Notes: generated by a model from the sequence alone, not told the origin. A stretch of DNA of 32,000 bases from Candidatus Micrarchaeota archaeon (GCA_028866775.1 JAGWHK010000001.1:14007-46006), one strand, 5' to 3'; counted from the stretch's first letter, positions 10,779 through 23,320 are shown. Program-made: numbers and translations.

Positions 10779-12662
10779 ATGCACAGGCATAGGAGCAGCC
10801 ACACGCATGAGATAGAACGCAAATTCCTAGTTAACACGATCCCCAACAGCATTGACCTGCAGGCGCTCCCAAAGAAGAGGATCCACCAGAACTACCTGAT
10901 AGTGGGCCCGGAGAGCGAGCTCAGGATAAGGCAGGAGGGTGACTCCTACCTTCTGACTGTCAAGCATGGCAACGGGCTTGTGAGGCGCCAGCCTGAGATA
11001 GCGCTGAGCCGTGAGCAGTTCGAGGCGCTCTGGGACTCCAACGGCAGCAGGCTGGAGAAAACCAGGTATTATATCCCGCTCGGAGGGGGCCAGGTCCATG
11101 TAGATGTTTATAAGGGCCCCAATCTTGAGGGTCTTGTAACCGCAGAGGTGGAGTTCGGAACAAAGGCAGAGGCGCGCCGCTTCCGACCGCCCTGGTGGTT
11201 TGGTCAGGAGGTCACCTACGACTCGGATTACAGGAACAGCGCTCTTGCGATGAGGGAGGAGCCCATACCGCAGCCCCAGAGGCTGAGCGTGCCCAGCGAG
11301 CTTGAGATCGGCTTGGAGGAGCTCTCCAGGCGGGCTGCCGCACTGCTCTTCAAGAAGGAGGAGGGGAGCATAGTCGTGCTTGTGAGTGGGGGCTCGGGCT
11401 CCGGGAAGACCACGGTGGCCGAAAGATTCGACGATAGGCTGAAGGACGATGCAGTGGTGATATCCATGGATCACTACTACAAGAGTAAGAGGAGGGCCAA
11501 TTTCGACGAACCAGATGCGGTGGACCTTGATTTGCTTGCAGAACATCTTGCCGCACTTCTCTCAGGAAAGAGCATAGAGAGACCTGTGTACGACTTCAAA
11601 ACCAGCAGCAGGCTGGACGAACACGTCACAGTTCCGCCCAAGAGAGTGCTAATAGTGGAGGGCCTTTATGCCCTGCACCCCAAGATCCGCAAGTTTGGCG
11701 ATATCTCTGTTTTCGTGGATGTGGGCGCACATGGCAGGATGATAAGGAGGCTCATCAGGGACTCGCAGCGCACCAGCATGTCGGTCTTCGAGACGCTCAG
11801 GTATGTGACGCAAGTTGCCGAGCCGATGTACAGGGAGCACATCCTGCCCACCAAGGCGTCGGCCGACATAGTGATAAGGAACGACTACGACCCAAGGAGG
11901 GAGGCAAGGGGCATAGAAACGGTCCAGTCACAGCTGAAGTACAAGGCCCCAAACCTCACGGATGAAATGCTGAGGAGGGAGGGCTTCAACAGAATCGCAA
12001 GCGTGAAGCAAAGCGACAGGTACTATGTTCCTCTGGATAGTCCGGTTGGCGGAGATGAAGTGATCATGCTCAGGGAGGAGGTGGACATTAGGAAGCTGGC
12101 CGAGGTGCTTGCCAGCCAAGCTGGAAAGTCCCTTGAAAAGTACAGCAACATGATAACAACTGAACTAAGGGAGAGGATTGAAGAGATGAAGGGGGAGGTT
12201 GAGGCTGCGATCATTAAGAACGACCTCAATGCAATGAGCGATAAGGCCAGCTCGCTGGGGATGGTCCTACAGAATGTGGGTCATGATGCCTATCCCGCTT
12301 CACTCGAGCAGGTAATATTCACATACAAGGGGCCCAGTGCACCAAGAACAGACAGCATGGAGAGGAACACGCTCAGCTTCGTGATCAACAAGGATACTGA
12401 GATGGTGCTCTCCTCAATATACAGCACGCAGCCCTCTGCCGCCATAATAAAAGACAGGGCGATCTATCATTCTGGCGGCATAGTGCTCTCGTTCGATACC
12501 AGGATAGCGGTTTGCGTGCAGTCCACCTTCCAGCCGGTGAACCACGTGGAATTCACCCTGCCGCCCGGGGCCTCAGGAAAGAAGATGGTGGAGAGGGTGG
12601 CAGCGAGGCTGGGCCTGACCCAGGCGGACCAGATCAATAAGCCTTACAGGGAAATGGCCTGA
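10779..12662 (+). CDS. Three-domain protein: CYTH (triphosphate tunnel) + uridine kinase/PRK-like P-loop kinase + second, divergent CYTH-like domain
   Basis: - N-terminal domain: the CYTH signature EIERKFLV at residues 11-18.
- Middle domain: P-loop GGSGSGKTT (204-212), ISMDHYYK, FDEPDAVDLDLL and VLIVEGLYAL, a uridine kinase/phosphoribulokinase family pattern.
- C-terminal domain (residues ~380-615): CyaB-like strand order (QSDRYY, IMLRE, FTYKGP, IKDRAIY, VLSFD, HVEF). Confidence 0.85.
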   Translation: MHRHRSSHTHEIERKFLVNTIPNSIDLQALPKKRIHQNYLIVGPESELRIRQEGDSYLLTVKHGNGLVRRQPEIALSREQFEALWDSNGSRLEKTRYYIPLGGGQVHVDVYKGPNLEGLVTAEVEFGTKAEARRFRPPWWFGQEVTYDSDYRNSALAMREEPIPQPQRLSVPSELEIGLEELSRRAAALLFKKEEGSIVVLVSGGSGSGKTTVAERFDDRLKDDAVVISMDHYYKSKRRANFDEPDAVDLDLLAEHLAALLSGKSIERPVYDFKTSSRLDEHVTVPPKRVLIVEGLYALHPKIRKFGDISVFVDVGAHGRMIRRLIRDSQRTSMSVFETLRYVTQVAEPMYREHILPTKASADIVIRNDYDPRREARGIETVQSQLKYKAPNLTDEMLRREGFNRIASVKQSDRYYVPLDSPVGGDEVIMLREEVDIRKLAEVLASQAGKSLEKYSNMITTELRERIEEMKGEVEAAIIKNDLNAMSDKASSLGMVLQNVGHDAYPASLEQVIFTYKGPSAPRTDSMERNTLSFVINKDTEMVLSSIYSTQPSAAIIKDRAIYHSGGIVLSFDTRIAVCVQSTFQPVNHVEFTLPPGASGKKMVERVAARLGLTQADQINKPYREMA

Positions 12663-12715: not shown

Positions 12716-12913
12716 ATGTGCCAGGCTCCGGTGGGGAAGGTTCTAGAAGTCAGGGGAGACCGCCTTGTGGTTGACGTAAAGGGCAAGAGAAGGGAGCTGC
12801 GCTCAAGGCTTCCTGGTATAGGGGTTGGCGATTATGTCTCGTTCTCCCTAGACATAGCGATAGACAGGATCGAGAAGGAGGAGGCGGAGGCAGTCTTGGA
12901 GGGGATGAAGTGA
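12716..12913 (+). CDS. hypC: [NiFe]-hydrogenase maturation chaperone HypC/HupF family
   Basis: 65 aa starting MCQAPVGKVLEV (the essential Cys2). The short OB-fold-like pattern and C-terminal helix EKEEAEAVLEGM are present. Confidence 0.85.
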   Translation: MCQAPVGKVLEVRGDRLVVDVKGKRRELRSRLPGIGVGDYVSFSLDIAIDRIEKEEAEAVLEGMK

Positions 12914-13464
12914 ACGATGAGGCAAGGATAGTATTCACTAGATACGCGATCCCTTGTTCCGGGACGATAATAGAGAGGGGCAAGATGACAAGGGAGCAGG
13001 TCGACAGGCTCACAGAGCTTGTGACAGATGGAAGGGCTCCCGAAGACGGCGTCGAGAGGATGTATCCAGTCGCGGATGCGATGTGCAAGCTGGTCGCAAG
13101 ACAGATGGGGAAGAGCGAGATTGACGCTGAGGTTGTGAGGGAGTATTTCCTGATCAGGCACAGCGCAGTGGTCGACGAGCGCTACGAGCTGATGAGGGAC
13201 TTCGACCCCAATGAGTGCAGGACCTATCCCGGAAAGGTGGTCGCTGTCAATGACGGCCAAGCAATCGTGGAGACCTCAAGGGGCAGGAGAGCTTACAAGA
13301 CAGTGCTTGCCCGGGATGTGGGGCCAAATGACTTAGTATCGGTGCACTTCGATTTCGTCGTTGAGAGGATAACAGAGCAGATGGCGGAGAGGATGAGGAA
13401 GGTGGCGTCAAATGAGAAAGGAGCAAAAGGGCATAATACTCGCAATCTTAGCCGCAGTATTTAG
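12910..13464 (+). CDS. HypC-like domain protein with a ~100-aa N-terminal extension
   Basis: GTG 12910 overlaps the hypC stop (GTGA). The C-terminal half, CRTYPGKVVAVNDGQAIVETSRGRRAYKTVLARDVGPNDLVSVHFDFVVERITEQMAERM, aligns by eye to HypC (C-x3-PGxV...VHxGFA..I.E..A). The N-terminal 102 aa are unrecognised. Confidence 0.7.
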   Translation: MNDEARIVFTRYAIPCSGTIIERGKMTREQVDRLTELVTDGRAPEDGVERMYPVADAMCKLVARQMGKSEIDAEVVREYFLIRHSAVVDERYELMRDFDPNECRTYPGKVVAVNDGQAIVETSRGRRAYKTVLARDVGPNDLVSVHFDFVVERITEQMAERMRKVASNEKGAKGHNTRNLSRSI

Positions 13465-14320
13465 CGGAGTAGCCATCCCGGCCAACAAGTTCTTCATAGT
13501 CAGCCTCAGCCCGGCGGTCTTCACCGCGGTGAGGGCCCTGATCATAGGAGTTGTATTCTTCGCGATAGCGTCGTATCAGGCGCGGAGGGGACACAGGAGC
13601 TTCAAGAAAGTGCCGTGGAAGTACCTCATTGCAATAGCAGTAATCGGTGGCGCTGCGGCATTCCTTCTGTATTTCACAGGGCTCAAGCTCACGACCGCAG
13701 GGAGGGCCGCCTTCCTCTACCACTCCGTGCTCACGATATTCACCGTGGTTCTGGCAGCCGCGTTCCTGAGCGAGAGGGTAGACAGGAGAATGGCCATGGC
13801 GCTCGGCGTGATGCTCATCGGCACCATAGTACTCTACGTCTCGCAGGTTCAGCCATCGCAACTCTGGTCAAATCCCAACCTTGGGGACCTGCTCATAATA
13901 GTCGCGTCAGTATTATGGGCCGTAGAGTACGTGATATCCAGGAAGGCCATGACGATGGGCGAGACCAACTTCGTGGTCTCGTTCGCCAGGATGTTCTTCG
14001 GGGGGCTGATACTCTTCGGGTTTGTCATAGTCACAGGAAACGCAGCTGCGTTGCTGAAGCTGTCGTTCCAGCAGTGGACAAACATAGGAGTGTCGACCCT
14101 GTTGCTTTTTGGTGACATACTCTGCTGGTACTGGAGCATCAGGTACATCAACGTGTCGAAGGCCAGTATCCTGCTGCTCCTTGCGCCGGTCATATCGCTG
14201 GTTGGTGGGAGCCTGTTTCTCAACGAGCCGGCGCCGCTGCTGCAGCTCGCGGGGTCCGCAGTTATACTAATCGGGGCTTATATTGTAATTGGTGTCAAGA
14301 GTGAGCAGGGAAAGGGTTAG
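13412..14320 (+). CDS. EamA/DMT-superfamily transporter (10 TM)
   Basis: 302 aa made of two EamA-like halves of hydrophobic helices: AILAAVFSGVAIPANKF... and ...ASVLWAVEYVISRK... . It overlaps the preceding gene by 53 nt. Confidence 0.85.
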   Translation: MRKEQKGIILAILAAVFSGVAIPANKFFIVSLSPAVFTAVRALIIGVVFFAIASYQARRGHRSFKKVPWKYLIAIAVIGGAAAFLLYFTGLKLTTAGRAAFLYHSVLTIFTVVLAAAFLSERVDRRMAMALGVMLIGTIVLYVSQVQPSQLWSNPNLGDLLIIVASVLWAVEYVISRKAMTMGETNFVVSFARMFFGGLILFGFVIVTGNAAALLKLSFQQWTNIGVSTLLLFGDILCWYWSIRYINVSKASILLLLAPVISLVGGSLFLNEPAPLLQLAGSAVILIGAYIVIGVKSEQGKG

Positions 14321-14702
14321 GTTTCTGGTCTTCGGGAACCCGATGCTGAGGATCGACAGCATGCCGATTCGGCTGATGCCTGATCTGAGGAAAAGGTTCC
14401 CGCAATTCGAGTTCGTGGAGTTCGACCCAAATGAGAATCTTGAGAGGGAGGGCAGGACGCTCGAAATCATAGACTCGGTGGAAGGAATAGATAAGGTCAC
14501 GCTCATCACAGACATCGATTCCATACAGCCCTCACCAGTTGTATCGATGCACGACTTTGACCTCGGGTATTCGCTCAGGCTGCTGAAGAAGCTCAAGCTC
14601 ATCGACAGCGTGAGGATATTCGGCGTCCCTATGGGGATGAAGAAGGCAGAGGCTTTCAGACAGCTTTCTAAGATCATCGCCGCTTCCGGGACGTTGGGGT
14701 AA
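14289..14702 (+). CDS. Hydrogenase maturation endopeptidase (HycI/HybD/FrhD family)
   Basis: FLVFGNPMLRIDSMP aligns with VGNxxxGDDGxG, LEIIDSV with the vDA motif, and SMHDFDL with the H motif. The track start 14289 is TTG; GTG 14292 or 14301 are equally possible. It overlaps the EamA 3' end. Confidence 0.7.
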   Translation: MVSRVSRERVRFLVFGNPMLRIDSMPIRLMPDLRKRFPQFEFVEFDPNENLEREGRTLEIIDSVEGIDKVTLITDIDSIQPSPVVSMHDFDLGYSLRLLKKLKLIDSVRIFGVPMGMKKAEAFRQLSKIIAASGTLG

Positions 14703-14758: not shown

Positions 14759-14950
14759 TTATCCCCCCTCTCTGCGGGCTTGGATAAGCACCTCATCCGA
14801 ATTCAGCACTAGGCCCCTTGCCATGGCCGTATAGAATTCTTTTTCTTTGGGGTTGTTGGCGAGTTCAATCTTGGCTTCCCGCAGAGCTGCCAAGAGCACC
14901 GAGTTGGAGGATAGTTTCGGTGTTCTTGCATTTCGGCCTGAAGATTGCAT
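14759..14950 (-). CDS. Hypothetical 63-aa protein, translationally coupled to the hydrogenase large subunit
   Basis: The ATG lies 1 nt after the large-subunit stop (TAAgATG). No motif recognised; coding status uncertain. Confidence 0.35.
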   Translation of the reverse strand: MQSSGRNARTPKLSSNSVLLAALREAKIELANNPKEKEFYTAMARGLVLNSDEVLIQARREGG

Positions 14951-14951
14951 C

Positions 14952-16262
14952 TTATCTCCAGTTTACCTTGAGGAAGTGGCTGGCGCAGCTCATGCAGGGG
15001 TCATAGGCCCTGATGAGCTTCTCTATCTCGTGCTCCAGCATGTGCCTGTCCATCGAGAGGTTATTCTGCACCAGCTTTGCGGTGCTTCTCTCCATGATCA
15101 TCTGGTTCTGCTGGGTAGGTACGATTATGTTGCCATAGGTCACCTTGCCCGTTTTGTCGATTGAGACCATGTAGTACAGCGTTCCCCTGGGAGCCTCGAT
15201 CAGGCCGACACCATCACCCTCCTTTATGCAAAGCGGCTCGTGCTGCTCCTGCGTGAACTGGCTTGACTCCAGGATCTCGATGGAGTGGTCTATGCTGTGC
15301 AGTATCTCTATCGCCTGGGCCAGGTTGTTGTGGTATATGTTCTTCGAGGGGAATGCGGATAGGTACTTTGCGGCATCCTTGCGGGTGTCTACGTGGAGTG
15401 CATCCCTGTTTAGGTTCATCCTTGCGAGGGCACCCACCATGTACTCGCGACCCTCGAATTTGTAGCTAGTCGCCTCGGAATATGGCATGACTATGCGCTC
15501 CAGATAGTCCCAGTACCTGTCCTCGGAGGTGTGCAGGCCGTTCGAATCAACGATGTTGCCCCTGAAGAAGGAGTAGTCCTTCGTCGCCAAGGCCACGAAG
15601 TCTGAGTCAAGCTCAAGGCTCGCATTCCAATTGTAGAACAGCTCTATCGCCTCTATCGCGTAGTCCCTCGCGACCTTCAGCTCGGCAATCACTTTCTTTA
15701 CTGTATCTGGGTCAGGGAGGTGCGAAAACTTCCCTACCTCAGCGAATGTCGCATGCACGGCCCTGCCCGCAATCGCCTTTGAGAGCTCGTTACCCGCGCT
15801 TTTTATCGCGAACGCCTTCTTCACCAGGTCGTCATGCTCCTCCCCAAGATCGAGGACAGAGTCCTTCCCGAACAGGTCCGGAAGGCAGAACATGAAGAGA
15901 TGGAGGGCATGGTCTCTTATCATCATCCCGTACAGCGACAGCTTCCTGAGCAATAGCGTCTGATCGCTGGGCGTATAATCAAGCGCCCTCTCCACCGCCT
16001 CTGAGCAGCAGGTCAGGTGAGCTATGCTGCAGGTGCCGCATATCCTCGATGTCATCAATGGCAGGGAAAGGGCGAACTTGTTCCTTATCGCCTGGGTGTA
16101 GAACCTCTTGCTCTCTGTTATCTTGAGCTTCGCATACTCGACCTTCCCGTTCTTGACCTTTATGTCAAGCTTGCCGTGGCCTTCCACCTTCGACATGTTG
16201 TCCACGTGTATGTGCTCGACCGAATTGCCACCTGCACCCTCAACATCCTCAAACCTATGCAT
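14952..16262 (-). CDS. [NiFe]-hydrogenase large (catalytic) subunit
   Basis: N-terminal ligand pair RICGTCSIAH. C-terminal ligand pair DPCMSCASH followed by a 7-residue tail, FLKVNWR. VEGHGKLDI near the N-terminus. ATG at 16262 (the track start 16271 is GTG) overlaps the small-subunit stop by 8 nt. Confidence 0.92.
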   Translation of the reverse strand: MHRFEDVEGAGGNSVEHIHVDNMSKVEGHGKLDIKVKNGKVEYAKLKITESKRFYTQAIRNKFALSLPLMTSRICGTCSIAHLTCCSEAVERALDYTPSDQTLLLRKLSLYGMMIRDHALHLFMFCLPDLFGKDSVLDLGEEHDDLVKKAFAIKSAGNELSKAIAGRAVHATFAEVGKFSHLPDPDTVKKVIAELKVARDYAIEAIELFYNWNASLELDSDFVALATKDYSFFRGNIVDSNGLHTSEDRYWDYLERIVMPYSEATSYKFEGREYMVGALARMNLNRDALHVDTRKDAAKYLSAFPSKNIYHNNLAQAIEILHSIDHSIEILESSQFTQEQHEPLCIKEGDGVGLIEAPRGTLYYMVSIDKTGKVTYGNIIVPTQQNQMIMERSTAKLVQNNLSMDRHMLEHEIEKLIRAYDPCMSCASHFLKVNWR

Positions 16263-16749
16263 TAACAACACCGAACTCTTTGAGGTACTTGTCCAGGACC
16301 TTTAGGAAGACGTCCTCCTCCATCGGGCATCCCTGGACCTCGTCATCTATTGGTATTACCTCTTTGACCATGCGCACCTTGTCGGCCTGCTTGAACCGCT
16401 TGAGCAGGAAGGATATCTCCTCCTTGAGTTCAGGCGGGAAGGTGTTCCTTTGCGCTGCCGGCATCCCGTTTACCGCGCAGGCACCTATAGCCACCACCCT
16501 CTTTGCGTTCTTCCTTATCTGCATGAGCTTCTTCGCGTCGGCATCGTTGGTTATTGCACCCTCCACGAAGGCCACGTCCAAACCCCTCATGCTGTTTTTC
16601 TTCTTTAGGACCCTGGCATGCCTTATGTCGAGCAGGCTCTTCCACTCGAAGAACCTCTGGTTCATCATCTCTATCCAGATCATGGTGCTGTCCTCGCAGC
16701 AGGTGAAAGAGAACCAGCCCACCCTAAGCTTTTTGACCATGGTACGCAT
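16255..16749 (-). CDS. [NiFe]-hydrogenase small subunit, minimal form (proximal cluster only)
   Basis: KLRVGWFSFTCCEDS, DVAFVEGAI, AIGACAVNG, VQGCPMEE. There are exactly four Cys. ATG options are 16749 and 16740 (the track start is TTG 16788). TATA CTTTATTATT (16771-16762) favours 16740. Confidence 0.85.
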   Translation of the reverse strand: MRTMVKKLRVGWFSFTCCEDSTMIWIEMMNQRFFEWKSLLDIRHARVLKKKNSMRGLDVAFVEGAITNDADAKKLMQIRKNAKRVVAIGACAVNGMPAAQRNTFPPELKEEISFLLKRFKQADKVRMVKEVIPIDDEVQGCPMEEDVFLKVLDKYLKEFGVVNA

Positions 16750-16822
16750 TGCCCTTGAAAGAATAATAAAGCTTTCCGGGATATCCAACTAGGTATTGTG
16801 GCCTAGACGGTTATGCGTCAGG

Positions 16823-17635
16823 TCAGGCAACCAGGCGCCGCTTCTCAGTCACCGTATTCTCGGGCTTCTTTGTTGCCATCTGATTCAATCCGTTCAGGAA
16901 ACGAGGTACATCAATCTTGACGCCAATTCTGACCTCTATCTCCTTTGGAAGGAAACCGGTGCCCTCCAACCCGTTCAGGCTCTTGAGGAGTTTCTCGACC
17001 TTTTCTTTTGTTGGAGTCATATCTTGGTAAAGAGCGATAACCGCGCCGTACGCGTAGTCCTTCATTCCGCTTTCCAGTGAGGGAGTTATTGGGAGGCCGA
17101 GCTCCTTGCAGATCTGATAGGCCTGATAGGGTTTCTTGTCCTTCATTACTATATCCTGGATTAGGGAGTTCTGCCCGATGAATATGTTTATGGAGGTTAT
17201 TTGATCGTGTGTGAAGTCACCCATATGGTTGCGCACAAAGGATTCGACGCGCTTGTCACGGTACTCCTTTTCGTTCTTTAGCTCAGTTACCGAAAGCTTT
17301 GCCATCTCATAAACAGGGATCTTGAATATGTCCTCTTTTCTCAGACTGTAGATATTGTAATTATGCCGTGCGTGCGATTCGCTGTCCAGCTGCACATGCT
17401 TGGTGAGCAATACAACCTCTTGCTCTTTGTTCACTTCTGTGACAGGTTTGTTCCTGTCAGTTTGGGTCAGTCCAAAATAAGTGTAGGTAGTTCCCTGGAA
17501 GTCAGAGCGAGCACCAAAGCCATGACAGATCGTCATGTCCTCAACCGCAGAAACCAAGACGATGGCCAGCTGGCCATGTTTCAGCTTCTTCAGTTGATCG
17601 GATTCAGATTTAGTAAGTCCTGAGAGTCTGCCCAT
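16823..17635 (-). CDS. Hypothetical 270-aa protein upstream of the hydrogenase structural genes
   Basis: ATG with the TATA ATTTATATTT ~33 nt upstream. Same strand as the hydrogenase genes. No recognised domain; only 2 Cys. Confidence 0.65.
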   Translation of the reverse strand: MGRLSGLTKSESDQLKKLKHGQLAIVLVSAVEDMTICHGFGARSDFQGTTYTYFGLTQTDRNKPVTEVNKEQEVVLLTKHVQLDSESHARHNYNIYSLRKEDIFKIPVYEMAKLSVTELKNEKEYRDKRVESFVRNHMGDFTHDQITSINIFIGQNSLIQDIVMKDKKPYQAYQICKELGLPITPSLESGMKDYAYGAVIALYQDMTPTKEKVEKLLKSLNGLEGTGFLPKEIEVRIGVKIDVPRFLNGLNQMATKKPENTVTEKRRLVA

Positions 17636-17663
17636 GATATCCCCAAGACCCTTGATTAATCCA

Positions 17664-17673
17664 AATATAAATG
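17664..17673 (-). promoter_or_regulatory. TATA box for the 270-aa gene (and possibly the hydrogenase operon)
   Basis: The minus strand reads ATTTATATTT, centred ~33 nt upstream of ATG 17635. Confidence 0.4.
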
Positions 17674-17842
17674 ACTTTCTCTACCTATTGGCCGCGCCAC
17701 GGTACTCATATTCATAGCATGACCCATACCTCTCGGCCGTGGCAAGCGATTCTGGGGGAGGGGCCTTAAATAGTCTTGCTATCCGCTTGGGAACTACCTT
17801 TTCGACGTCAAAACCAAAGGGGGATTGCCTTGTGGGTAGCGG

Positions 17843-17854
17843 TTTTATATAATT
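17843..17854 (+). promoter_or_regulatory. TATA box for the HxlR-family regulator
   Basis: TTTTATATAATT is centred ~26 nt upstream of ATG 17874 (leaderless spacing). Confidence 0.45.
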
Positions 17855-17873
17855 GACGCTGCATAATATCAAC

Positions 17874-18251
17874 ATGTCCGGCAAATCAACCTCTTGTCCC
17901 ACTCTTAACCTGCTCCACATGATCGGTAAGAAGTGGACCATCCCGATTGTGGAGCTGCTTCACCCTTCAAACAAGGCGCTTCAATTCAACGAGATGCAGC
18001 ACCTCCTGGTTGACATAACGCCCAAGAACCTCAGCAGGAGCCTGAAGGAGCTCTCTGATGCCAAGATAGTGAGCAGGGTCGAGATCCGCAACGACGGGAT
18101 CAGGTATACTGAATACTCTCTCACTGAGAATGGCAAGAAGGTCGAGGGATTGGTCAGGGCCGCGAAGGAGCTTGGTATCTGCATGTATGACATGAACGCC
18201 TATTGCGTCAACCGCCAGTGCCACCTCTGCCCGTTGCTCAAGTCGACCTGA
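17874..18251 (+). CDS. HxlR-family winged-helix transcriptional regulator with a C-terminal Cys cluster
   Basis: CPTLNLLHMIGKKWTIPIVELL...FNEM...ITPKNLSRSLKELSDAKIVSR...YTEYSLTENGKK is the HxlR pattern. The C-terminus reads CMYDMNAYCVNRQCHLCP. Confidence 0.85.
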   Translation: MSGKSTSCPTLNLLHMIGKKWTIPIVELLHPSNKALQFNEMQHLLVDITPKNLSRSLKELSDAKIVSRVEIRNDGIRYTEYSLTENGKKVEGLVRAAKELGICMYDMNAYCVNRQCHLCPLLKST

Positions 18252-18358: not shown

Positions 18359-18386
18359 CACCGTGAGCAGTAGTGCTGGTGTTAGT

Positions 18387-20537
18387 ATGGATGGAAAGCT
18401 AGAGGGGATAGTCAACGGGAATGGAAGCAACGGCATGGGCTTCAAGTCGATAATGAAGAGGGACGGCCGTATAGTGAGATTCGAGCTCGACAAGATAGTA
18501 AAGGCCATAGCCAAGGCTGGGGCGGCGACCAACGAGTTCGGAGACGTGGTGGCAAAGAGGCTGGCGATGAAGGCTGTTGCCCTGCTCGTGGCGACCAGCG
18601 AGAAGGAGATCCCGTCAGTGGAGGAGATACAGGATGCGGTGGAGGAGATACTCCTCTCCAGCCAGTACAGGAAGACTGCGAAGGCATACATACTCTACAG
18701 GGAGCAGCACGCCAACATAAGGAACATAGTCAACACCGCGAGCGTCGACCTTATTGGCCAATACCTGGACAAGATAGACTGGCAGGTCAACGAGAACAGT
18801 AACATGGACTACTCGCTGCAGGGGCTCAACAATTACATCTCGTCAGAGATAAGCAAGGTCTACTGGCTCAACAAGATCTATCCCAAGGAGGTGAGGGAGG
18901 CGCAGCTGAACGGCGACTTCCACATACACGACCTCAACACCCTTGCGGTATACTGCGTCGGTTGGGACCTCAACGACCTGCTGATAAGCGGGTTCAAGGG
19001 GGCCAGAGGCAAGATAGAGAGTTCCCCCGCGCGGCACTTCAGGGCTGCGCTGGGTCAAGTAGTCAACTTCTTCTATACCTTACAGGGGGAGGCGGCAGGT
19101 GCGGAGGCGTTCTCCAACTTCGACACCCTTCTTGCGCCATTCATCAAATACGACAGCCTCTCGTACGCAGAGGTTAAGCAGGCCATGCAGGAGTTCATAT
19201 ACAACATGAACGTGCCAACGAGGGTCGGATTCCAAACCCCCTTCACGAACATAACCCTGGACCTCAACGTGCCCAAGCATATGGCAGACAAGCACGTCAT
19301 AATAGGGGGGAAGTTCCAGGAGCTCACCTACAAGGATTTCCAGAAGGAGATGGACATGTTCAACAGGGCGTTCCTGGAGGTCATGCTGGAGGGAGACGCC
19401 CAGGGCAGGGTCTTCACCTTCCCGATCCCCACATACAACATAACAAAGGACTTTGATTGGGAGGACCCGAAGCTGGACCTCCTCTTCAAGGTGACCGCGA
19501 AGTACGGCATCCCATACTTCTCCAACTTCGTAAACTCTGACATGAAGCCCGAAGACACAAGATCGATGTGCTGCAGGCTCAGGCTCGACACAAGCAAACT
19601 GGAGCAGAGAGGGGGAGGCCTCTTCGGCGCCAATCCGCTGACGGGATCCCTGGGGGTCGTGACGATAAACCTGGCCAGGATAGGCTACAACAGCAAGAGC
19701 GAGCAGGAGTTCACCACGCAGCTAGACAGGATGATGATGGCCGCAAGGGAGAGCCTGGAGATAAAGAGGAAGGTCGTGGAAAGGTTCACCGAGGCGAACC
19801 TCTACCCGTATACCAAGTTCTACCTAAGGGACATGAAGCAGAGGTTCGGCGAATACTGGAAGAACCACTTCTCGACCATAGGGATAGTCGGCATGAACGA
19901 GGCGGTCAGAAACATGCTGGGAGAGACCGAGGGCACCCACAGCGAGAAGGGCAGGGCCCTGGCGATCAGGATAATGGACCACATGAGGAGCAGGCTTGTC
20001 GAGTTTCAGAAAGAGACCGGCAACAACTACAACCTCGAAGCGACACCGGCGGAGAGCACAGCCTACAGGCTGGCCCGGAAGGACAAGGAGCTCTACCAGG
20101 CGATAACCTGCGCCAACGAGGCCCAGTACAAGCAGGGCGCGGAGCCCTATTACACAAACTCTACCCACCTTCCTGTGGGCTACACGGACGATATGTTTGA
20201 GGCGCTCGACCTGCAGGACGAATACCAGACGAAGTACACCGGCGGCACCGTGCTCCACCTCTTCGTAGGGGAGAAGATAACCGACGTGAGGGGCGTAAAG
20301 AGCCTGGTGAAGAAGGTCTGCAACAATTACAGGCTGCCGTACTTCACGATAACTCCCACCTTCAGCGTCTGCCCGAGTCACGGCTACATGGCCGGGGAGC
20401 ACCAGAAGTGCCAGAAGTGCGAGAGCGAGTGCGAGGTCTACTCGAGAATAGTAGGCTACCTGAGGCCGGTGCGACAGTGGAACAAGGGCAAGAAGGCCGA
20501 GTTCTCCGACAGGAAGGCCTACAAGGCGATGCTGTGA
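18387..20537 (+). CDS. nrdD: Anaerobic ribonucleoside-triphosphate reductase (class III), with N-terminal ATP-cone
   Basis: ATP-cone IMKRDGRIVRFELDKIVKAI. C-terminal Zn-ribbon Cys CPSHG...CQKCESEC. Glycyl-radical motif SRIVGYLRPVRQWNKGKKAEF. ATG at 18387 (the track start is GTG 18363). Confidence 0.95.
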   Translation: MDGKLEGIVNGNGSNGMGFKSIMKRDGRIVRFELDKIVKAIAKAGAATNEFGDVVAKRLAMKAVALLVATSEKEIPSVEEIQDAVEEILLSSQYRKTAKAYILYREQHANIRNIVNTASVDLIGQYLDKIDWQVNENSNMDYSLQGLNNYISSEISKVYWLNKIYPKEVREAQLNGDFHIHDLNTLAVYCVGWDLNDLLISGFKGARGKIESSPARHFRAALGQVVNFFYTLQGEAAGAEAFSNFDTLLAPFIKYDSLSYAEVKQAMQEFIYNMNVPTRVGFQTPFTNITLDLNVPKHMADKHVIIGGKFQELTYKDFQKEMDMFNRAFLEVMLEGDAQGRVFTFPIPTYNITKDFDWEDPKLDLLFKVTAKYGIPYFSNFVNSDMKPEDTRSMCCRLRLDTSKLEQRGGGLFGANPLTGSLGVVTINLARIGYNSKSEQEFTTQLDRMMMAARESLEIKRKVVERFTEANLYPYTKFYLRDMKQRFGEYWKNHFSTIGIVGMNEAVRNMLGETEGTHSEKGRALAIRIMDHMRSRLVEFQKETGNNYNLEATPAESTAYRLARKDKELYQAITCANEAQYKQGAEPYYTNSTHLPVGYTDDMFEALDLQDEYQTKYTGGTVLHLFVGEKITDVRGVKSLVKKVCNNYRLPYFTITPTFSVCPSHGYMAGEHQKCQKCESECEVYSRIVGYLRPVRQWNKGKKAEFSDRKAYKAML

Positions 20538-21223
20538 TCATAGGTGGCCTCCAGAAAAGCTCTCTGATCGACTATCCGGGCAAGGTATCCGCGATAGTCT
20601 TCACGCGCGGCTGCCCCCTGAGATGCCACTTCTGCCACAATCCAGGGCTTGTGCTTCCAGAGATGTTCGGCAAGGCGACACCGGACTGGGAGGTGCTCGA
20701 GTTCTTGAAGTCAAGGGTCGGCAGACTTGACGCGGTAGTCGTTACCGGGGGGGAACCCACGATCCACAAGGATCTGCCGGACTTCCTGGCAACCATAAAA
20801 GGCATGGGATACCTGGTGAAGCTCGACACGTCAGGCGTGAACCCGGAGATGGTGAAGGTGCTGCTCGGCAACGGGCTGGTCGACTACATCGCCATGGACA
20901 TAAAGGCGCCTCTATCGAGGTACAGCGAGGTCGCAGGCGTCAAGGTCAACACAGAGGCAATAAAGAGGAGCGTAGAGATTATAAGGGAGAGCGGAGTTGA
21001 CTATGAGTTCAGGACCACAGTCGTCAAGGGCCAGCTCTCGAAGGATGACATTGTGCTGATAGCGAAATATATAGAGGGCGCCAAGAGATACTTCCTGCAG
21101 AGGTTCCGGGGAGGCGTGACCCTCGACCCTGGATTTGCCAAGAGGGGCGCATACAGCGATGCGGAGTTCGAGTCGATTAGGGATGAGTCGGCGAAGCATG
21201 TAATCGAGTGCGAGGTCAGATGA
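20534..21223 (+). CDS. nrdG: Anaerobic ribonucleotide reductase activating protein (radical SAM)
   Basis: IDYPGKVSAIVFTRGCPLRCHFCHNP (CxxxCxxC) and VVVTGGEPT. The start is inferred as GTG 20534, overlapping the nrdD stop (GTGA). The longer track ORF from 20408 would run inside nrdD. Confidence 0.9.
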   Translation: MIIGGLQKSSLIDYPGKVSAIVFTRGCPLRCHFCHNPGLVLPEMFGKATPDWEVLEFLKSRVGRLDAVVVTGGEPTIHKDLPDFLATIKGMGYLVKLDTSGVNPEMVKVLLGNGLVDYIAMDIKAPLSRYSEVAGVKVNTEAIKRSVEIIRESGVDYEFRTTVVKGQLSKDDIVLIAKYIEGAKRYFLQRFRGGVTLDPGFAKRGAYSDAEFESIRDESAKHVIECEVR

Positions 21224-22876: not shown

Positions 22877-23320
22877 TCACCTCATCTCTTCGTGGCTCTC
22901 CCATGTCTGAGTGTTTGATTTTCTTCTGAGCGGCCTGTATATGTACTCGTGCCCCCAGGGATCCCTGACCTTTACCTTGTATGGCCTGGCCTTGGTGTAC
23001 TTGGACAGCGCGAATTCGTCCTTTGCCGGATCGATGTCGAGCATCGGGCCCTGCTTCGGCTGGTACCTGGGCTCCCTGTCGGTCTTGACTATCTCTATGC
23101 ACGATACAGGGCACTCGTTGGGGCATATCATGCAGCCCGTGCACTTGGACACCTGTATCGGATACTCCGTCATGAAGGTGGTCTGGTCAGTCTCTTTCTT
23201 CTCGTCTTCTACATGGGCATGCCGCGGTCTGGTGAAGTCAAGGGCATTGACAGGGCAGGCATCGCCGCATATGCCGCACTGTATGCATGTGGTGTTGTCA
23301 AAAGTGAACTTGAACGGCAT
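22877..23320 (-). CDS. 2x[4Fe-4S] ferredoxin-domain protein with a ~70-aa C-terminal extension
   Basis: Two CxxCxxCxxxCP motifs: CIQCGICGDACP and CTGCMICPNECP. A ~35-aa linker separates them. Confidence 0.85.
   Translation of the reverse strand: MPFKFTFDNTTCIQCGICGDACPVNALDFTRPRHAHVEDEKKETDQTTFMTEYPIQVSKCTGCMICPNECPVSCIEIVKTDREPRYQPKQGPMLDIDPAKDEFALSKYTKARPYKVKVRDPWGHEYIYRPLRRKSNTQTWESHEEMR

Follow-up and report, generated by a model that had tools for sequence, protein, structure and literature searches.

A two-subunit [NiFe]-hydrogenase in a Micrarchaeota genome, predicted to derive from group 3b, and the flavoprotein partners suggested by its relatives

Sequence comparisons indicate that a 32,000-nucleotide stretch of a Candidatus Micrarchaeota archaeon genome (GCA_028866775.1, JAGWHK010000001.1:14007-46006; this whole stretch is called here the window, and positions are counted from its first letter) encodes a [NiFe]-hydrogenase of two subunits, predicted to be functional, cytosolic and derived from group 3b, along with a maturation set of its own. 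The enzyme belongs to a large clade from which the HyhB/HyhG diaphorase appears to have been lost, as has the Fe-S domain at the C-terminus of the small subunit, leaving one cluster beside the Ni-Fe site. In sister lineages whose small subunit carries the same N-terminal motif, CCEDS, the partner would be an NAD(P)H-independent thioredoxin-reductase-like flavoprotein, either fused to the N-terminus of that subunit or specified by a gene of the operon. Our best overall explanation, which we hold with about even confidence, combines a 3b-derived two-subunit enzyme, a flavoprotein outlet and a thiol-redox partner located elsewhere in this genome.

The large subunit gene (14952-16262, minus strand) codes for 436 amino acids (aa) that match Pfam NiFeSe_Hases (E 1.2e-23) and are identical to NCBI protein P0001; the open reading frame (ORF) spans 14952-16271, with the ATG at 16262 as the likely start. 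As claimed in the original prediction, the protein keeps both Ni-Fe ligand pairs, RICGTC and DPCMSCASH, and ends in a 7-residue tail, FLKVNWR. Both Cys pairs are invariant in an alignment of 14 homologues at 59-83% identity, as is DPCM.CA.HFL at the C-terminal pair (14/14), and the three segments RICGTC, DPCMSCASH and FLKVNWR are all invariant or nearly so. The small subunit gene (16255-16740, minus strand; 161 aa; Pfam Oxidored_q6, E 1.5e-18) precedes it, the stop codon of the former overlapping the start codon of the latter (AATGCATAG). Its ORF extends over 16255-16788 and most likely begins at the ATG at 16740, in agreement with the NCBI annotation (P0121); a second possible start, the ATG at 16749, would give the 164 aa first proposed, but the annotated and likelier length is 161 aa. 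This protein contains four Cys in total, C14, C15, C88 and C138 (motifs FTCCEDS, GACAVNG and QGCPME), and aligns with the 261-aa delta subunit of Pyrococcus SHI over residues 3-151 alone, the C-terminal Fe-S domain being gone, which confirms the earlier description of exactly four Cys without a C-terminal ferredoxin-like extension. The next ATG lies one base after the large subunit stop (TAAgATG), and the gene junctions read as had been described.

Convergent with the large subunit gene is a divergent maturation endopeptidase of the HycI/HybD type (14289-14702, plus strand, 137 aa), whose family adjoins the large subunit in 74 of 85 related loci. We identify it mainly because 12 of 13 family members match Pfam HycI (best E 6e-6), the copy in the window falling below threshold; a profile search against the PDB retrieved HybD at E ~0.8 only. 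The alignment with Escherichia coli HybD (1cfz) is full-length but weak, and it places the invariant D23, D62 and H88 at HybD metal-site positions. Because this cognate protease is present nearby, the suggestion that the large subunit is proteolytically processed gains support. Two further plus-strand genes complete the set: a HypC/HupF chaperone (12716-12913; 65 aa; Pfam HupF_HypC, E 1.1e-11; NCBIfam hypC_hupF) and a HypC fusion (12910-13464; 184 aa; Pfam HupF_HypC, E 7.5e-9 on residues 103-164) with an uncharacterised N-terminal region of ~100 aa that weakly matches DUF6390. This DUF6390-related fusion is likely a maturation factor. Its position is held by DUF6390 in 7 loci, and the HypC fusion and DUF6390 may together represent a lineage-specific maturation factor. 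DUF6390 genes were seen in L052, L055, L061, L063, L067, L072, L077 and L088; the family measures 240 aa and shares a HypC-like C-terminus. The flanks had first been described as two orphan ORFs only: both do exist as open frames, but the endopeptidase, HypC and HypC fusion genes on the plus strand had been overlooked. The hallmarks of any [NiFe]-hydrogenase are present, namely the RxCGxC and DPCxxC pairs of the large subunit, a small subunit with the Oxidored_q6 fold and a proximal-cluster site (by sequence and fold match), and a large subunit tail accompanied by a dedicated endopeptidase and Hyp chaperones. Pfam scans of the 32-kb window detected no HypA, HypB, HypD, HypE or HypF among its ORFs. 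Likewise, no diaphorase, FrhB, MvhD/Hdr, cytochrome b or Mbh/Ech gene was detected in its ~40 ORFs, which extends to the whole window the earlier remark that no usual partner module is adjacent. With the ligands, the tail, a single-cluster small subunit and none of these modules nearby, the reading of a minimal two-subunit hydrogenase stands.

Relatives were collected by scanning one genome per GTDB species (574 found, 80 loci fetched); ORFs were called and clustered in 85 related loci with flanks within +/-10 kb, and tblastn searches covered 90 related loci. The hosts include Micrarchaeota, Aenigmarchaeota, Woesearchaeota, AR10, Nitrososphaeraceae/Nitrososphaerales (the longest contig measuring 1.8 Mb) and, in small number, Patescibacteria (candidate phyla radiation, CPR); the enzyme is also encoded in the complete genomes CP010424 (AR10), OY969902 and OY969114. 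The large subunit is found in 85/85 loci, the short small subunit in at least 75 (the remainder being fused or cut at contig ends) and HypC or the HypC fusion in 47, so that a core of small subunit, large subunit and protease recurs throughout; no HyhB/HyhG-like cluster lies within 10 kb in any of them. As the absence of partner modules recurs in ~85 loci, it is no assembly accident. The best 120 small subunit homologues all measure 149-197 aa, and an exhaustive search among 1.84 billion representatives showed that the nearest relatives are short, the canonical proteins of 240-290 aa appearing at ~28-42% identity only. These canonical long small subunits carry a C-terminal extension of ~100 aa that the short clade lacks, and a rough neighbour-joining tree sets the short ones apart, with the CCEDS type nested within them. 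The closest syntenic relative, L090, has a large subunit 83% identical to that of the window and the gene order MoxR...CysRS-PyrD-NrdG-NrdD-HxlR-(unrelated 122-aa ORF)-small subunit-large subunit-protease-HypC fusion-CYTH/uridine kinase.

Surveys of some of these same organisms (LFW-125_1, our L025; LFW-242_1, L082; AR10, L072) assigned the enzyme to group 3b and assumed NADPH coupling. We found no paper noting either the missing subunits or the thioredoxin reductase fusions described below, in literature searches covering few subscription journals. Metagenome-assembled genomes (MAGs) of Nitrososphaera, Nitrososphaeraceae and Nitrososphaerales (L026-L030, L033-L035, L038-L040, L047, L050; a 1.8-Mb contig in L034) contain the same enzyme with a CC-type small subunit, beside hypE, hypD and hypF; a review of ammonia-oxidising archaea (AOA) names only 3b enzymes of four subunits, in Nitrosocaldus, and, for Nitrososphaera, Ehr complexes. 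A number of TPA MAG records from 'binchicken' that contain the DPANN-type module bear names that look at odds with their gene content ('Methanosarcinales' for L042, L052, L055 and L062; 'Gammaproteobacteria' for L056, L061, L067 and L074; 'Saccharibacteria' for L064) and may be mislabelled bins.

The affinities of the two subunits point in two directions. The best PDB match of the large subunit is SHI alpha (9nez_D, 6e-65), followed by MvhA (8e-44), HoxH (2e-38) and then FrhA, and its best NCBIfam scores, 264 bits for ShyA (cut-off 700) and 235 for HydA (cut-off 880), are far below the equivalog cut-offs. The small subunit scores 54 bits with HydD (cut-off 500), along profile positions 4-154 of 261. 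Its AlphaFold2 (AF2) model (pLDDT 82, pTM 0.81) matches SHI delta with TMq 0.73 and TMt 0.48, half of the target being covered, but covers the whole of 5xf9_C (HoxY) and 7t2r_E (TMq 0.75-0.76, TMt 0.69). With NuoB-type subunits TMq is ~0.55, lower than with hydrogenase small subunits (0.73-0.76). We consider the enzyme to be 3b-like by sequence and, as far as the model can tell, 3d-like by the architecture of its small subunit.

Around the tandem Cys of the small subunit, flanking residues fix the register gap-free (window GWFSFT-CCEDS; canonical 3b proteins GFFSFT-GCEGC or -CCEGC; SHI delta T-SCYGC) and thereby put C15 at the first canonical ligand position, with Ser18 at the second. C14 is an extra Cys already found in many long 3b subunits (CCEGC). 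Among 67 unique short small subunits, C88 and C138, with their motifs GxCA and GCP, are invariant (67/67), C14 is shared by 61, C15 by 46, and 16 have a Cys at position 18; the tandem Cys pointed out in the original prediction is conserved. By motif, 44 unique sequences have CCEDS, 9 CDEGC, 5 GDEGC or SDEGC, 5 CSEDS or CSGDS, 2 GCGGDS, and one each CCEGC and GCEGC. The earlier comparison of the CC pair with NuoB/Nqo6 is a fair analogy, since hhalign, with a provisional sequence for Thermus Nqo6, places the window CC on the CC of that protein; an alternative in which the two pairs stand in different registers was dropped, hhalign giving it no support. The pair nevertheless seems to have arisen inside the 3b lineage, independently of NuoB. 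For the window protein, the simplest reading, and a plausible one, is a [4Fe-4S] site in which four Cys, the CC pair among them, are the ligands. Against it, the small subunits of L041, L045, L048, L057 and L072 have three Cys in total, for which reason four-Cys ligation is plausible, not proven. CSEDS-type proteins (L017, L021, L023, L063) have one Cys in the N-terminal motif. In such members of the family, whether with three Cys or of the CSEDS type, a conserved Asp or Glu lies close by, which hints that a ligand may be other than Cys or that the cluster may be [3Fe-4S]; the family tolerates three Cys, possibly joined by a carboxylate.

The relatives suggest where the electrons may go. In 7 species-level loci (L044, L051, L054, L058, L059, L060 and L073; for example L044:2994-4487 and L051:8025-9539), an N-terminal Pyr_redox_2 region of 300 residues is fused to a C-terminal Oxidored_q6 small subunit in proteins of ~500 aa. 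About 30 of the best 120 clusters in a profile search are such fusions (proteins P0391-P0437), annotated merely as 'FAD-dependent oxidoreductase' or 'thioredoxin reductase (NADPH)'. The best PDB match of the fused flavoprotein is DvTRi (5nii, 2.8e-55); it keeps the redox disulfide (HYCVxCDGP), and its NADPH motifs are degenerate, GGGxxA having become GNGNHA and HRRD, SNAD. DvTRi itself is a thioredoxin reductase that works independently of NAD(P)H; its reductant was left unidentified (PMC5627308). Unfused orthologues, 44-58% identical, overlap the large subunit stop codon in L057, lie inside the module in L062 and in L078/L086/L087, often with a single-cluster ferredoxin of 74-79 aa, and stand 4 kb away in L088; L089 has a 48%-identical, unlinked paralogue. 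In total, a thioredoxin-reductase-like flavoprotein with CxxC is fused to or co-operonic with the small subunit in 16 related loci. One operon with the fusion (L091) runs HypC, HypC fusion, EamA, TRi-small subunit, large subunit, and then protease, small ferredoxin, OsmC and a DsbA-like thioredoxin. A different solution is seen on a 6.8-kb contig (JGI 3300072015), where a 702-aa protein (P0247) joins a NuoF-like FMN/[4Fe-4S] domain to a CSEDS-type small subunit, followed by the large subunit, the protease and DUF6390. The single-cluster ferredoxin (Fer4_13/15) adjoins the protease in ~6 genomes (L054/L091:9436-9660, L062:8223-8447, L078/L086:6048-6287, L053 and L082) and mostly co-occurs with the thioredoxin-reductase-like gene; it may therefore be a relay to the flavoprotein rather than the end partner. 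We read the short small subunit as a candidate plug-in electron outlet that would dock on flavoproteins, most commonly on a relative of thioredoxin reductase.

In the window, the genes next to the hydrogenase operon include possible consumers of reduced thiols. Divergent from the operon is an HxlR-type winged-helix regulator (17853-18251, plus strand; Pfam HxlR, E 1.1e-13), with weak NCBIfam matches to the redox regulators RrpA/RrpB, followed by the class III (anaerobic) ribonucleotide reductase NrdD (18363-20537, plus strand; Pfam NRDD, E 6e-206, plus ATP-cone) and its radical-SAM activase NrdG (20408-21223, plus strand; Pfam Radical_SAM). The listed start of NrdG is a GTG, its homologues measure 227-232 aa, and the true start probably lies downstream. 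HxlR stands beside the small subunit in 8 of the 85 loci and in L090 and is conserved in the sub-lineage of the window, across which HxlR, NrdD and NrdG adjoin the operon; it may act on both divergent operons as a sensor of thiols or metals. It carries an N-terminal Cys (STSCP) and a C-terminal CHLC. NrdD, present in 11 of the 85 loci, adjoins the hydrogenase in the window, L001/8, L002/3/16, L006, L007 and L090 and lies 6-7 kb off in L037, L041 and L045. In a full-length alignment, its SMCCRL falls on the SCCR motif of the Thermotoga maritima enzyme, the formate-dependent T4 enzyme having MGCR; a 99-aa NrdD fragment searched against the PDB gave no match. A third Cys is said to mark NrdD2/NrdD3, and reduction by thioredoxin was demonstrated for the NrdD of N. 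bacilliformis; we have taken the extra Cys of the SCCR motif as that third Cys, which the source does not locate. NrdD is thus a possible consumer of a reduced thiol redoxin. The window also encodes an AhpC/TSA peroxiredoxin and a PAPS reductase, both of which are thioredoxin-dependent enzymes.

In the mechanism that we propose, H2 would be split at the Ni-Fe site and the electrons would pass from the single cluster of the small subunit to the flavin of a bolt-on partner, directly or through the small ferredoxin, with no built-in Fe-S wire. In the organism of the window, and this is the weaker step, the partner would be encoded elsewhere in the genome, most likely as a flavoprotein disulfide reductase/thioredoxin system. 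H2 could then provide reducing power for enzymes that depend on thiols, for example three encoded in the window: the redoxin-type class III ribonucleotide reductase beside the operon, the peroxiredoxin and the PAPS reductase. The transfer of electrons from H2 to thioredoxin is downhill, while a fermentative role would favour transfer from ferredoxin to H2; the window enzyme may work in either direction. Several observations weigh against this mechanism. Neither the window nor any Micrarchaeota locus contains a thioredoxin-reductase-like gene within +/-10 kb, be it fused to or co-operonic with the small subunit, as expected of an H2-dependent thioredoxin-reductase system, and none of the best 120 thioredoxin-reductase-like matches is named Micrarchaeota; the partner here is a predicted one. 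Moreover, none of the ORFs in the window was recognised as thioredoxin- or NrdH-like, and the adjacency of NrdD is concentrated in close genomes and may therefore reflect inherited synteny instead of functional linkage. For these parts of the explanation our confidence falls below even: a thiol-redox flavoprotein partner in this particular genome seems to us a tentative proposal, and somewhat more doubtful still is the wider one, that the whole clade acts as an H2:thioredoxin (disulfide) oxidoreductase in which the lone Fe-S cluster reduces the FAD of a fused, operonic or free NAD(P)H-independent thioredoxin reductase.

The most serious competitor is a ferredoxin-coupled minimal hydrogenase, to which we give a minor share of the probability. 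A ferredoxin reduced by 2-oxoacid:ferredoxin oxidoreductases would dock on the exposed cluster, and excess reductant from fermentation would be vented as H2. The alpha-delta subcomplex of Pyrococcus SHI is active and takes electrons from pyruvate:ferredoxin oxidoreductase, and structures of alpha-delta heterodimers exist in the PDB (9e1j). In addition, Micrarchaeota of this group were described as fermenters with KorAB/OforAB (PMC8561730), and the small single-cluster ferredoxin is found beside the protease in the ~6 clade genomes mentioned above. The window itself encodes, 5.6 kb from the operon, a 147-aa protein with 2x[4Fe-4S] ferredoxin domains (22877-23320, minus strand; Pfam Fer4 families), originally put forward as a candidate partner. 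This protein has not survived as a candidate: it forms a singleton cluster, gave one weak tblastn match in the 90 loci (L048, E 3e-4) and is absent from L090, where PyrD runs straight into CysRS. In Micrarchaeota the module has no conserved ferredoxin, and the small ferredoxin accompanies, where present, the thioredoxin-reductase-like gene, which again suits a relay.

It is improbable that the enzyme is an ordinary group 3b hydrogenase (HyhBGSL), NADPH-coupled through a diaphorase encoded elsewhere. The closeness of its large subunit to the alpha subunits of SHI and SHII, in the PDB and in NCBIfam, would agree with this idea, as would the assignment to group 3b in HydDB-based papers. The original prediction had named an enzyme of a described subgroup, with its partner subunits elsewhere, as the finding that would count against it; the surveys do assign the enzyme to such a subgroup, but HyhBG elsewhere is unlikely because the ~100-aa Fe-S domain by which canonical 3b delta subunits are wired to HyhBG at their C-terminus is missing here and because relatives have their small subunit fused to other flavoproteins. 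The low NCBIfam scores of both subunits and the lack of HyhB/G-like genes within 10 kb in the 85 loci argue in the same direction. An H2-sensing (regulatory) hydrogenase signalling to the adjacent HxlR, as two subunits beside a divergently transcribed regulator could suggest, is highly improbable, given that the large subunit is group-3-like and not group-2-like, that it retains its tail along with a conserved dedicated endopeptidase, whereas group 2b sensors have no C-terminal tail, and that the adjacency of HxlR is confined to one sub-lineage.

Equally improbable is that either orphan in the flanks supplies a new redox partner subunit, as the original prediction had suggested; in favour of it, both ORFs share the operon strand and are tightly spaced. 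The first (16823-17635, minus strand, 270 aa) has no match in Pfam, NCBIfam or PHROGs, forms a singleton cluster annotated as 'hypothetical protein' among 15 billion proteins, and contains no cofactor motif; its AF2 single-sequence model is of low confidence (mean pLDDT 49), and GC content drops to 0.47 at 16800-18000, over this ORF, against 0.52-0.58 elsewhere in the window. The spacer between the small subunit and HxlR holds different, unrelated ORFs in L006, L007 and L090 (in the last, a non-homologous one of 122 aa), and therefore looks like a variable insertion spot. The second (14759-14950, minus strand, 63 aa) begins one base past the large subunit stop and has no Cys, no family match in the same three collections, and no annotation in the source; its exact sequence is absent from the 15-billion-protein collection. 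Because the protease gene abuts or overlaps the 3' end of the large subunit gene in relatives, there is no room for it there, and it is probably not a gene. Neither ORF found a homologue by tblastn in the 90 loci, and both, like the ferredoxin block, are absent from the syntenic L090, so that these searches and the cluster look-up effectively rule out the orphans as partner subunits; we regard both as lying outside the module.

The remaining genes around the operon can be described briefly. Between the protease and HypC genes lies an EamA-family transporter (13412-14320, plus strand; 302 aa; Pfam EamA, E 4e-41), which occurs in 40 of the 85 loci, mostly in this same position. It shows a weak NCBIfam likeness to exporters of cysteine/O-acetylserine and aromatic amino acids, and NicO-type nickel transporters replace or accompany EamA in some loci (L086, L088). 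Further away, a 627-aa protein (10779-12662, plus strand) combines CYTH, uridine kinase/PRK and a long C-terminal region, and neighbours the hydrogenase cluster in L090 too. The gene content across the window is archaeal, with the RFC small subunit, DUF655, CysRS and NrdDG recognised by Pfam.

Reconstructions of DPANN metabolism routinely list a bidirectional, NADPH-coupled 'group 3b' hydrogenase, an assignment of NADPH that the sequences do not support. With no diaphorase and no Fe-S wire, metabolic models built on NADPH coupling therefore need revisiting. The most interesting lead lies outside the window, in the fusions to the NAD(P)H-independent thioredoxin-reductase-like protein. They offer hydrogen-driven thiol reduction as a concrete function and, for a class of thioredoxin reductases with a reductant described as unknown, point to a candidate electron donor. 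If the wider proposal for the clade is true, DPANN archaea and some relatives of ammonia oxidisers would have an H2-powered, NADPH-free source of reduced thiols with which to make deoxyribonucleotides and resist peroxides, TRi-type thioredoxin reductases would at last have a named physiological reductant, and the class III ribonucleotide reductase next door would be a main client in the organism of the window, the flavoprotein being encoded elsewhere in its genome. The presence of the enzyme on megabase contigs of Nitrososphaerales falls outside the coverage of the AOA review. With ~600 residues and one cluster, such a natural alpha-delta hydrogenase also makes an attractive minimal scaffold, and its family provides a natural series of cluster-ligand variants (CCEDS, CDEGC, GDEGC, CSEDS).

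The comparison with known systems helps to define what is particular to this enzyme. With NuoB/Nqo6, which houses cluster N2 of complex I, the small subunit shares the Oxidored_q6 fold family and the tandem CC, but its CC appears to be of independent origin, by a change from CCEGC to CCEDS within the 3b lineage, and its structure is nearer to hydrogenase small subunits. The hybrid [FeFe]-[NiFe] hydrogenases of groups 3f/3g offer a precedent for a group 3 small-subunit domain fused to another redox module, and one fusion of this type (P0375) appeared among our distant matches. In those hybrids, however, it is joined to an [FeFe] H-domain, NuoEFG-like subunits are present, and the small subunits retain extra Fe-S domains; the study that describes them and archaeal [FeFe] enzymes (Cell 2024, PMC11216029) does not describe the two-subunit [NiFe] enzymes of DPANN. 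The 'group 3e' proposed in a bioRxiv preprint is Anaerolineae-specific and without regular accessory genes. Among NAD(P)H-independent thioredoxin reductases, which include DvTRi (5nii), the ferredoxin-dependent FFTR (6gna) and the deeply rooted DTR (5j60), the fused or adjacent flavoprotein of the clade is closest to DvTRi and resembles them in keeping the CxxC disulfide without NADPH motifs. In FFTR the flavin is reduced directly by an Fe-S protein. The donor in the clade would differ in being a hydrogenase small subunit, often covalently fused, and the TRi signature TQ/NGK is not conserved, SNADK standing in its place.

Group 2b/2c sensors, with a group 2 large subunit and neither tail nor protease, differ on each of these points. 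The closest relatives are the group 3b enzymes of Pyrococcus and Thermococcus (SHI/SHII; HyhBGSL or HydBGDA), with which our enzyme shares the ligand motifs and short C-terminal tail of a large subunit closest to SHI alpha, an N-terminal small-subunit domain closest to SHI delta, and a tandem Cys already seen in many canonical small subunits. Canonical 3b enzymes, though, have adjacent hyhB and hyhG genes for the beta/gamma diaphorase and a small subunit of ~240-290 aa with extra C-terminal Fe-S clusters, whereas the window and the surroundings of its relatives lack the former, its small subunit is reduced to a 161-aa proximal-cluster domain with the second canonical Cys changed to Ser (CCEDS), and its NCBIfam scores are far from those of equivalogs. 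In this reduced form it resembles 3d-type small subunits, HoxY (5xf9_C) and HydS of the bifurcating HydABCSL (7t2r_E), which also measure ~160-180 aa, carry only the proximal cluster, feed a flavoprotein module and are its best whole-chain structural matches (TM 0.69-0.76). It differs from them in the 3b affinity of both subunits, the large one being far closer to SHI alpha than to HoxH, in the absence of adjacent HoxFU or HydABC genes, and in the partners of its relatives, which are thioredoxin-reductase-like or, once, a fused NuoF-like domain. Set against these systems, the hydrogenase is a distinct variant of group 3b/3d that surveys mislabel as NADPH-coupled.

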